A stretch of DNA of 64,000 bases from an uncultured Pseudomonadales bacterium (GTDB taxonomy: Bacteria > Pseudomonadota > Gammaproteobacteria > Pseudomonadales > Porticoccaceae): the NCBI GenBank assembly GCA_943788895.1, contig CALSRZ010000004.1, positions 56,454-120,453 on the forward strand, given 5' to 3'. Every line of letters begins with the position of its first letter. Position 1 is the stretch's first letter. The translations under genes were made by a program, and so were the position numbers. Below are positions 37,504-56,390 of this stretch, piece by piece. A model generated the notes under the pieces. The model worked only from the letters and a program-made list of their open reading frames with translations, made no database searches and was not told the origin of the DNA.

Positions 37504-37755
37504 ATGGCATTAAAAGCAACCTCTGTAAGATTAGATGACGAAACCCTAGAGCGAGTAGGGCATATAGCAGAAGCGATGGATCGCCCTCGCGCCTGGCTGA
37601 TGGGTGAAGCGATCAAGCAATATGTCGCCCGTGAAGAGTGGGCGATTTATGAAATTGAGAAGGCGGTAGAAGCTGCTGATCAAGGTCAGCTGCAAAAGCA
37701 TTCCGATGTGAAGGCCAAGTGGGAGGCTAAAAAGAATGCAGCTCAATTGGACTGA
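37504..37755 (+). CDS. CopG/ribbon-helix-helix antitoxin
   Basis: TSVRLDDETLERVGHIAEAMDRPRAWLMGEAIKQYVAREEW; overlaps the toxin start. Confidence 0.85.
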   Translation: MALKATSVRLDDETLERVGHIAEAMDRPRAWLMGEAIKQYVAREEWAIYEIEKAVEAADQGQLQKHSDVKAKWEAKKNAAQLD

Positions 37756-38026
37756 GTTAGCGGTAAAAGATCTGGATTATGTAGAGAGCTATATAGCTGA
37801 AGAAGGCAATCCAGTTGCGGCTATAGATTTGGTCATACAGATTATTGATGTGACCGAAAAAATATTGCTTCAATACCCCGATGCGGGTCGCTCCGGACGA
37901 GTTACAGGTACTAGAGAGTTAGTGATTAAAGGTACTTCATTTATTGTAATTTACCGCAACCACAGCCAGTTAGGGCAGTTACAGGTATTGCGTGTGTTAC
38001 ATGATGCGCGTGAGTGGCCGGCATAA
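37736..38026 (+). CDS. RelE/ParE-family type II toxin
   Basis: MQLNWTELAVKDLDYVESYI...YPDAGRSGRVTGTRELVI...YR...VLRVLHDAREWP. Confidence 0.88.
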   Translation: MQLNWTELAVKDLDYVESYIAEEGNPVAAIDLVIQIIDVTEKILLQYPDAGRSGRVTGTRELVIKGTSFIVIYRNHSQLGQLQVLRVLHDAREWPA

Positions 38027-38091
38027 TAAGGCTGTGTTCTGCCAGGATAAAAGAAAACTTCAGTATTATTGGTTGTACTGCGATAGTTCAA

Positions 38092-38246
38092 ATAGCCCCT
38101 CTGTATACCCTTGAGATCAATCAGGGCCCGCTTATAAGTTTTTAATTTTCAGGTTGAGCGAGCGCCTGTTTGAGCGAAGCGAGTTGCGGGAGCGCTGGAA
38201 ATTATAAACTTATGGGACCGATCTCAAGGGTATACAGAGGGGCTAT
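38092..38246 (+). repeat. 155-bp palindromic element, copy A
   Basis: Perfect 27-bp terminal arms ATAGCCCCTCTGTATACCCTTGAGATC (38092-38118 / 38220-38246) around a 101-nt core homologous to 56185-56285. Confidence 0.92.
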
Positions 38247-38373
38247 CTCCCCACAAAAAACCCAACCCCCGCCCTAACAACAAATGAATAAAGAATAACT
38301 GCTATCATTCCTTTAAACTGAACTATGAATCACCCAAGTAATAATTATTTATTAAAAAGGTCCGAGCAAAAAA

Positions 38374-38904
38374 ATGGCATTCGATATGACAATGGCCCTG
38401 TTCCGGCCAGCGCTAAAATATGCAATGGAAAAGAACGGTCATGGAAAGGCCCTCGGACTCAAAATGACCGAGATTAATCGCGGCGAAATCAAACTCACCT
38501 TTCCCTACAAACAAGACGTGATCGGCAACCCACTGACCGGTGTTATTCACGGCGGTGTTATTGTCAGCCTTATCGATACCGCCTGTGGCTCCGCAGCCAT
38601 GACCGTACTGAAAACACCAGCGGTCGCACCAACCATGGACCTGCGTCTCGACTATATGCACCCCGCAGAGCCCAACAAGCCAATCTATGTCGAAGCCAAA
38701 GTCTACCGCCAGACCTCAAATGTTATCTTCTGTCGCGGCCTCGCATGGCAAGACGACAAAGAAAATCCCATTGCCCACGGTATTGCCAACTTTATGAAAG
38801 TCGACTCAAAAAGCATTAACTTCAGCGCCATAGCCATCACCCAGCTGCGCCGACTAATGCCCTGGGGAAGCAGTACAGCCAGCGATAAGGCAACCGAAAA
38901 ATGA
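38374..38904 (+). CDS. PaaI-family (hotdog) thioesterase
   Basis: GNPLTGVIHGGVIVSLIDTACG, PTMDLRLDYMHPA. Confidence 0.9.
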   Translation: MAFDMTMALFRPALKYAMEKNGHGKALGLKMTEINRGEIKLTFPYKQDVIGNPLTGVIHGGVIVSLIDTACGSAAMTVLKTPAVAPTMDLRLDYMHPAEPNKPIYVEAKVYRQTSNVIFCRGLAWQDDKENPIAHGIANFMKVDSKSINFSAIAITQLRRLMPWGSSTASDKATEK

Positions 38905-56076: not shown

Positions 56077-56157
56077 CCGTCATCCTGGCATTATGATCGT
56101 CATCCAGCGAATGCTGGTATCTGTTTGGTAGTCGGGCGTAAGCTGTTTTTGGTGCGG

Positions 56158-56312
56158 GCGAAGCCATGGTGATCCTTTACGATCGGTCCCATGGGTTGAG
56201 CATTTTCAGCGTTCGCACAACTCGCTGCGCTCAAACAAGTGCTCACTCGACCTGAAAATGCTCAACCCATAAGCGGGCCCTGATTGATCGTAAAGGATCA
56301 CCATGGCTTCGC
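56158..56312 (-). repeat. 155-bp palindromic element, copy B (opposite orientation to A)
   Basis: Perfect 27-bp arms GCGAAGCCATGGTGATCCTTTACGATC (56158-56184 / 56286-56312); 101-nt core aligns without gaps to copy A. Confidence 0.92.
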
Positions 56313-56390
56313 TGAGATACCGAGTGACAGGTCGGAAGAACGGTCAAGGCTAAGACTAAGAATTAATTAAATTTAAGAGAGTTTAGAAAA

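Follow-up and report, generated by a model that had tools for sequence, protein, structure and literature searches.

The two 155-nt palindromes of the window (the whole 64,000-nt stretch of DNA analyzed here), designated copy A and copy B, are members of an undescribed family of hairpin repeats that is gene-less, noncoding, and nonautonomous. The family inverts the layout of MITEs, REPIN-RAYT systems, attC sites, and similar elements: the center of the hairpin is constant, and its ends are free in sequence or private to a single copy. The pattern of sequence change shows that selection acts on the rod in its folded, single-stranded form and on a single polarity, corresponding to the + strand of copy A.

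Architecture and distribution of the hairpin family

Copy A and the reverse complement of copy B each measure 27 + 101 + 27 nt and align without gaps, as a sequence-only reading of this DNA had pointed out (Table 1). The paired segments that it described were also recovered. The outer arms form a perfect 27-bp terminal inverted repeat in A and in B and have 12/27 positions in common between the copies (counted by hand), the inner GATC included. The second stem (19 bp) differs between A and B with its complementarity kept, and a mini-stem that reads CGC/GCG in A and CAC/GTG in B likewise differs in sequence and keeps its pairing. The same reading had called the unpaired blocks near-invariant. 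This was correct for the long blocks, which are identical in both copies, but not for GGGACC, which is paired: its partner is GGGCCC, with one G·A mismatch, and this helix covaries elsewhere in the family (GGGTCC/GGACCC and GATTCC/GGAATC). The blocks GATCAATCAGGGCCCGCTTAT and TGTTTGAGCG(A/C)AGCGAGTTG each occurred exactly twice in the window, compared with 0.00 to 0.01 expected occurrences. No target-site duplication was visible, in agreement with the earlier reading, and no consistent direct repeat was present at the conservation boundaries.

Table 1. Window coordinates of copies A and B, of their parts, and of REP-like repeats (loci outside the window are named)
Feature	Position	Strand	Remarks
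Copy A, complete rod-like hairpin, type I subfamily	38092..38246	+	155 nt; covariance model score, 188.8 bits
Copy A 5' extension GTACTGCGATAGTTCAA	38075..38091	+	Kept among type I copies (position-wise information, sorted flanks)
Copy A helix 1, 5' arm	38092..38118	+	Terminal GATC invariant in SAR92, not outside SAR92
Copy A bulge AATCA (5'), helix 2 5' strand GGGCCC, bulge GCTT	38119..38133	+	Within the most conserved block, AUCAAUCAGGGCNCGCUUAU
Copy A helix 3, 5' strand	38134..38152	+	19 bp, covarying
Copy A apical module	38153..38194	+	Motif at 38167-38186; conserved across orders
Copy A helix 3 and helix 2 (GGGACC), 3' strands	38195..38219	+	
Copy A helix 1, 3' arm	38220..38246	+	GATC at its start
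Copy A 3' tail CTCCCCACAAAAAACCCAACCCCCGCCC...	38247..38286	+	C/A-rich, G-poor (tail composition of 76 copies); weak conservation to ~+40
Copy B, complete hairpin, type II subfamily	56158..56312	-	193.7 bits, the genome's top model score
Copy B 5' arm	56286..56312	-	
Copy B core	56181..56289	-	
Copy B apical motif	56218..56237	-	
Copy B 3' arm	56158..56184	-	
Copy B 5' extension CACTCGGTATCTCA	56313..56332	-	Homologous to the extension of other type II copies
Copy B 3' tail CCGCACCAAAAACAGCTTACGCCCGAC...	56118..56157	-	C/A-rich
REP-like repeat sites	56077-56125; L084:480-515 and 810-845; L107:1095-1135		

Copy A with its flanks had a predicted folding energy of -89.5 kcal/mol (z = -8.4), and the opposite strand folded nearly as well (-86.1 kcal/mol). 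On one side of copy A lie a ParE toxin gene and its RHH antitoxin gene, and on the other side lie two thioesterase genes. The RHH (CopG-type) antitoxin and ParE toxin pair is directly upstream, at window positions 37504-38026 (Pfam E = 1e-8 and 5e-12). Copy B occupies the leuB-asd spacer, antisense to the two genes.

From foot to tip, the rod consists of helix 1 (27 bp), a 5' bulge (ARTCA), helix 2, a second 5' bulge (GCTT), and helix 3 (~19 bp), followed by a purine-rich internal loop in which RWNRAGNGA faces GARCG, likely as tandem G·A pairs. Above this loop are the 4-bp helix 4, with variants GCGC/GCGG, GCAC/GTGC, and AGAC/GTCT, and an apical stem, UGUYUGAGCG-N(1-2)-AGCGAGUU, capped by a GNA or GNNA loop. 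In copy A, the internal loop is GTTGAGCGA opposite GAGCG, and the tip beyond helix 4 is UGUUUGAGCG-A-AGCGAGUU, a stem with a GNA cap. In other genera, stems that are very different in sequence and G+C content surround the same invariant motifs; the blocks that persist there are AUCAAUCAGGGCNCGCUUAU, the apical motif, and UGNGACCGAU, and GATC is not among them. Conservation or compositional bias extended beyond the hairpin for ~20 to 27 nt on the 5' side and ~20 to 40 nt on the 3' side. Since conservation runs past both hairpin ends, the unit is better taken as ~190 to 205 nt long. In the first 20 nt of the 3' tail, C made up 41% and G made up 14% of the bases (76 copies). Three units stand in tandem in MOLA455, with a period of 190 nt. 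An open reading frame within the hairpin was rejected as a candidate, all frames being short and nonconserved, and a 13-nt identity of GCCTGTTTGAGCG to fungal 5.8S rRNA that surfaced in a literature string search was dismissed as a coincidence, there being no rRNA model match.

Using a profile HMM of the 109-nt core, from GATC to GATC, we found 12 copies in the 1.95-Mb SAR92-clade genome (G000), dispersed and every one of them intergenic. When species-representative genomes were scanned for an exact pattern, 66 loci were recovered, every one from the SAR92 clade, HTCC2207, MOLA455, or Porticoccaceae. A covariance model was then built from 81 distinct copies. Within the taxonomic family, it matched 20/151 genomes and 5/20 genera, and within the order it matched 12/145 genera; 8 further genera belonged to other gammaproteobacterial orders and mostly carried the ~60-nt apical module, in several copies per genome. 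Genomes with the element had 1 to 18 copies, and many congeneric genomes had none. The distribution was thus patchy, and of roughly 45 SAR92 species sampled, about 18 had the element. Derivative forms comprised a tandem array, internal deletions, a nested insertion, and a truncated remnant. The comparison with Rfam that had been proposed as a check turned up no already described family: the whole window gave no match to Rfam 15 at the gathering score, and at E ≤ 10 the sole match within 37950-38400 was a chance snoRNA lying outside the element. Viral contigs and plasmid and phage collections held no match to the family, and a literature search found no publication describing it.

Several individual loci showed unusual arrangements. 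At L125 and L126 (in G132 and G110), the same ~55-nt extra segment, CGATGCACATAGATGTGCGAGTGTCGCGTGAGGCGGGACACCGGGAGCGACCCC, lies inside GGGACCGATC of the element and may be a small nested element. In G000, two inverted copies arranged 5' to 5' flank a single 130-amino-acid GFA-family gene (L107:214-1079; contig C6:43513-44378), and similar divergent pairs, 150 to 180 nt apart, occur in another genus (L137 and L138). Tandem expansions were seen at element edges, with CACCCAA present four times after one copy (L047 3' flank) and GCACTCTCAATCTCCCG present three times before another (L072 5' flank). At L104:7700-7830, the frame of the convergent gene crosses the complement of the 3' tail, which is rich in G and T, and ends within the hairpin arm; the insertion seems to have lengthened the C terminus of the encoded protein.

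Covariation and substitution rates

In the alignment of 81 copies, 95.0% of pair cells held standard pairs, compared with 26 to 42% when the partners were slid by 1 to 3 columns. Changes on both sides were seen in 41/55 pairs, none of 500 shuffles reached the observed values, and the RNAalifold prediction was concordant. Covariation in this larger alignment was thus very strong, and, together with the absence of a match in Rfam, it bears out the earlier view of a family that is conserved in structure and not in sequence.

The kinds of mismatch indicate which strand folds. In helix 1, read on the + strand of A, there were 86 G:T mismatches and 13 A:C mismatches, and when only derived mismatches within clusters of orthologous loci were counted, there were 42 G:T events and 11 A:C events. 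Since strand-neutral mutation predicts equal numbers, the G:T excess shows that selection acts in place on the folded form of one polarity, which agrees with the sequence-only proposal that a single strand folds. By our reasoning, the usual mutation biases of transcription and replication predict a sign opposite to that of the G:T excess. Both signs by which a structured RNA is recognized, namely, compensatory covariation beyond controls and a strand-specific G·U excess, were found.

Across 110 orthologous pairs, divergence was 0.17 in helix 1, 0.28 in helix 3, 0.06 in the conserved core, and 0.19 in the better-conserved flank. Judged against the better flank, the stems drift about as fast as neighboring DNA while staying paired. 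Stems that drift at the rate of flanking DNA and are nonetheless 95% paired constitute a very clean natural experiment in compensatory evolution. The bulges and the apical GNA/GNNA stem-loop evolved 3 to 4 times more slowly than the stems, and both the bulges and the apex are clearly under purifying selection. Slow evolution of the unpaired blocks is as expected if something reads them.

Histories of the copies in SAR92 and in genus g153

Most SAR92 copies are of type I or type II, and in each subfamily a recognizable terminal sequence is kept across many loci. Type I arms, including those of A, have the form aATAG.C.CTG-variable-CCTTGA, and type II arms, including those of B, have the form CAGCGAAGCCATG-variable-CCTTTGC. 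Since A is of type I and B is of type II, the low identity between their arms is partly a subfamily difference. The contrast that had been drawn with MITEs, i.e., that the termini are not conserved, is therefore weaker in SAR92, where terminal sequence is kept per subfamily; it holds in genus g153, where near-identical cores are found in unrelated arms.

At the B locus, orthologous copies were present in at least 8 other SAR92 species, and the central pentamer of the arm (GTGAT, GGAAC, GCAAC, GCGAG, or CAGAC) varied with matching changes in the opposite arm. In genomes without B, the leuB-asd junction was tight (17 to 59 nt) and had no hairpin. G004 retained no more than the 5' extension plus 6 nt of the arm, and in G023, the closest relative, other repeats took the place of B. 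This pattern of occupancy across species indicates that the SAR92 copies are old, mostly vertically inherited, and occasionally lost. The sole clean pair for an empty-site comparison was G004 and G024, with CCAAG on both sides; this arrangement is more readily explained by a deletion between microhomologies in which the 5' extension was spared. Comparisons of G000 with loci of other species in search of empty sites were mostly unalignable, and a scan of metagenomes for alleles of A and B in which the element is missing gave 0 matches. In the leuB-asd spacer of G024, G002, and G010 (L195 and L194/L196), a second palindromic insert of ~150 nt, with perfect terminal inverted repeats GGCAGGTGTTTATATTGCTGAC...GTCAGCAATATAAACACCTGCC, lies beside the B-type element; it is absent from G004.

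Two modes of insertion were considered and rejected. Insertion into preexisting terminators was rejected for SAR92, as the long palindromes of the genome are terminators with A runs and T runs and the element arms have no such runs. Insertion into a larger palindrome was rejected because the 70-nt flanks paired no better than mismatched controls (P = 0.27). Apart from the hairpin family, by far the longest perfect palindrome in G000 is a 27-bp perfect inverted repeat, CCTCCGGGTGCACCATACTAAAAACCC, with a 15-nt loop, which lies outside the window (contig C6:131963-132031).

Genus g153 (G499 and G527), which belongs to a different taxonomic family, had 17 copies, with cores of 117 to 125 nt and arms of 23 to 34 bp. 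The arms were almost perfectly complementary within a copy (~98% Watson-Crick in G499) and unrelated between copies, and the cores of some pairs were 96 to 98% identical despite their unrelated arms. Given the measured rates for stems and core, joint divergence of arms and cores from one ancestral copy cannot have produced such arms. Three readings are compatible with this result: movement of the core without its arms, homogenization of the cores by gene conversion, or rebuilding of the arms with one arm as the template for the other. The copies L180 and L187, which are orthologous in two species, had related arms with ~8 compensated changes in 28 bp. At one locus, a species that has no core carries the outer halves of the arms, paired as a 10-bp stem with a 14-nt loop, and the copy found in a third species has arms unrelated to these; the 10-bp stem fits both insertion into a small hairpin and loss of the core. 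Beyond this one informative locus, an empty-site comparison of G499 with three congeners was mostly unalignable. A more specific scheme, which we put forward tentatively and consider unlikely as it stands, is that the core is a mobile hairpin seed whose folded strand would be recognized by a putative widespread gammaproteobacterial protein; the core would be moved or copied without its arms and would gain, at each new site, a private, perfectly complementary 23- to 34-bp stem by self-templated (fold-back) DNA synthesis. We know of no description, for bacterial repeats, of a transposition or maintenance step in which a core gains a private stem at a new site.

Candidate roles and relation to known systems

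In SAR92, the gene on the 3' side of the element was convergent in 60/72 copies and 25/31 locus clusters (P = 0.0009), and a co-oriented downstream gene was present at the others (12/72 copies; 6/31 clusters). About half of the SAR92 copies, B included, were antisense to both neighbors. In genus g153 (G499), many copies seem to be sense to genes and upstream of them, and the orientation rule seems reversed there, as read unsystematically from the flanks. [quoted passage not shown] The orientation tied to genes and the tolerance of G·U, taken together, favor a constraint at the RNA level. A consensus scan found no sigma-70 promoter adjacent to A or B, terminator calling gave no intrinsic terminator for either strand of A or B, with no U tract present, and position-wise information revealed no conserved -35 element. 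By eye, type I extensions contain TGCGATAAT-like strings that resemble an extended -10 element; type II extensions have no -10-like hexamer.

We hypothesize, with about an even chance of being right, that the family is selected as the folded + strand, that this strand is probably RNA, that it is read through its constant core by a putative trans-acting protein, and that the family has spread as mobile or copied DNA. As the pattern of change shows, the helices are free in sequence and constrained only to pair; the features held constant on the + strand are the ARTCA and GCTT bulges, the purine-rich loop with its likely tandem G·A pairs, the apical UGUYUGAGCG-N-AGCGAGUU stem, and the GNA/GNNA cap. 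The folded form would most likely be RNA, made by local transcription or, at about half of the copies, by read-through from the upstream gene. The core, constant and lopsided, could serve as a docking surface for the putative trans-acting protein, which might be a nuclease, a recombinase, or an RNA-binding protein. In SAR92, the copies are old and vertically inherited and drift by compensated changes; in genus g153, where the core is found almost unchanged at many sites, it would move or be converted without its arms, or one arm would serve as the template for rebuilding the other. The perfection of the arms may be aided by template switching at the DNA level, a mutational route that is established for quasipalindromes in E. 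coli (PMC7202029). Several observations count against the RNA reading: A and B have no adjacent promoter or terminator consensus, the SAR92 copies that are antisense to both neighbors would need a promoter of their own, the orientation rule seems reversed in genus g153, the opposite strand folds nearly as well, and the arms in G499 are more perfect than selection on RNA alone would need. Nor did the searches turn up a partner protein, a parent IS, or a target duplication.

A purely DNA-level selfish palindrome with no RNA role, its arms perfected by fold-back or template-switch synthesis and its core read as a hairpin or cruciform by a transposase-like enzyme, strikes us as unlikely. Such an element would account for near-identical cores within unrelated, almost wholly Watson-Crick arms of 23 to 34 bp and for stems that diverge at the rate of the flanks yet remain paired, although gene conversion could instead explain the core similarity within genomes. 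The oligonucleotide d(GCGAAGC) is a very stable DNA mini-hairpin, and the apical GCGNAGC resembles it; the template switching established in E. coli (PMC7202029) is also in favor of this alternative. However, arm-to-arm copying predicts no 4- to 7-fold excess of G:T over A:C on one strand, and this excess was seen within orthologous loci as well. The lack of replication-strand bias also speaks against it, the three 5'-side bulges have never been corrected to give a perfect palindrome, and no Y1/HUH transposase co-occurs. In particular, the co-occurring HUH/RAYT gene for which the sequence-only reading had suggested a search did not materialize: PF01797 was absent from G000 (12 copies), G110 (18 copies), and G174 and was present in G003 and G020, which have no element.

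A role in cis seems quite unlikely to us. In this case, a host-domesticated element would act within transcripts, in the + polarity only, as a terminator or insulator or as a signal for mRNA processing or stability (e.g., as a site for RNase III/E or by loading Rho onto the C-rich tail). The position of SAR92 copies at gene ends, where a co-oriented downstream gene is rare, and the G-poor, C-rich 40-nt tail after the hairpin fit such a role, and ERIC and Correia repeats act in this way (PMC3184786). But the hairpin has no U-tract terminator, the copies antisense to both neighbors are carried in + polarity by no known mRNA, and the orientation trend appears opposite in G499, as read from the flanks. 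Moreover, many congeneric genomes do without the element, and the tight leuB-asd junction works without it. Multicopy, independently transcribed, trans-acting small RNAs, with the C-rich, CUCC-containing tail as a seed and the rod as a stabilizing or protein-binding domain, are in our judgment highly improbable. Selection on one polarity, an unstructured C-rich tail, and a conserved 5' extension that stops at the foot of the hairpin, with the resemblance to an extended -10 element in type I, would suit small RNAs, but the promoter consensus is absent by scan, as are a conserved -35 element and, in type II, any -10-like hexamer; there is no terminator, and copy number and presence are too variable for a core regulator.

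The hairpin family does not pass the tests that define MITE, REPIN-RAYT, attC, terminator, and Rfam families. Our best reading is that it probably works most like bcr1, ERIC, and REPINs. In the Bacillus cereus group, bcr1 (~155 bp) is predicted to adopt a long double-stranded fold that compensatory base changes preserve at the RNA level (PMC3184786). The likeness to bcr1, in which architecture alone was compared, lies in the same size class, a dispersed intergenic distribution, and a compensated fold. The two differ in that the ends of bcr1 carry 5-bp direct repeats and its genomic distribution is not conserved, whereas the hairpin family has no visible target duplication and many of its copies are orthologous across species; moreover, bcr1 comes from an unrelated taxon and has no known sequence similarity to the family. 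ERIC/IRU elements (Enterobacteriaceae and Vibrio, ~127 bp) are imperfect palindromes in transcribed intergenic regions that can alter mRNA stability (PMC3184786). By architecture alone, they differ in keeping their terminal inverted repeats and a flanking TA, whereas the hairpin family has a constant center and free ends. REPINs are hairpin-forming, nonautonomous repeats that persist vertically, show compensatory changes across the hairpin, and occasionally form tandem clusters (PMC3116915), all of which is also seen in the hairpin family. In REPINs, however, the ends (REPs) are conserved, the spacer is variable, and a RAYT accompanies the repeats; here, the center is conserved and no Y1 transposase co-occurs.

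Like the hairpin family, attC sites conserve a folded single-strand structure over sequence and have strand-specific extrahelical bases. But attC sites have conserved R and L boxes at their ends, a variable center, and a place in cassette arrays next to intI, whereas the hairpin copies are single, dispersed among housekeeping genes, and invariant at the center, with no GTTRRRY-type end boxes. The element ends are ATAG...CTAT or GCGAAG...CTTCGC and contain no attC R''/R' boxes. MITEs (Correia/NEMIS, RUP, and Nezha) share with the family their small size, the lack of genes, multiple intergenic copies, subfamilies, and truncated and deleted copies, but the hairpin family has no parent IS with matching ends, no visible target-site duplication, and, in some genera, copy-specific arms. 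Model searches of >900 genomes revealed neither half-elements flanking a gene nor a parent IS, and all copies were full length, internally deleted, or cut by contig ends; in G000, there was one 5'-truncated remnant only. The usual MITE or REPIN models do not explain a constant center with free or private ends or near-identical cores in unrelated perfect arms. SAR92 bacteria and their relatives are abundant in coastal waters and have streamlined genomes, so a 200-nt noncoding element kept at a dozen housekeeping loci in one species after another is unlikely to be neutral. Explaining this inverted layout could uncover a previously undescribed RNA-protein module or a new route by which DNA palindromes are made and moved, and the invariant ~60-nt apical module offers a ready bait for a partner protein.

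A separate family of REP-like repeats, GAGATCCCTCGTCGC...GGGATGAC, often brackets the element in inverted orientation (Table 1). REP-like repeats are abundant in SAR92 intergenic regions, where they occur as GAGATCCCTCGTCGCTGCGCTCTGTCGGGATGAC and as shorter CCAGC.TTCGCTGGGATGAC forms.
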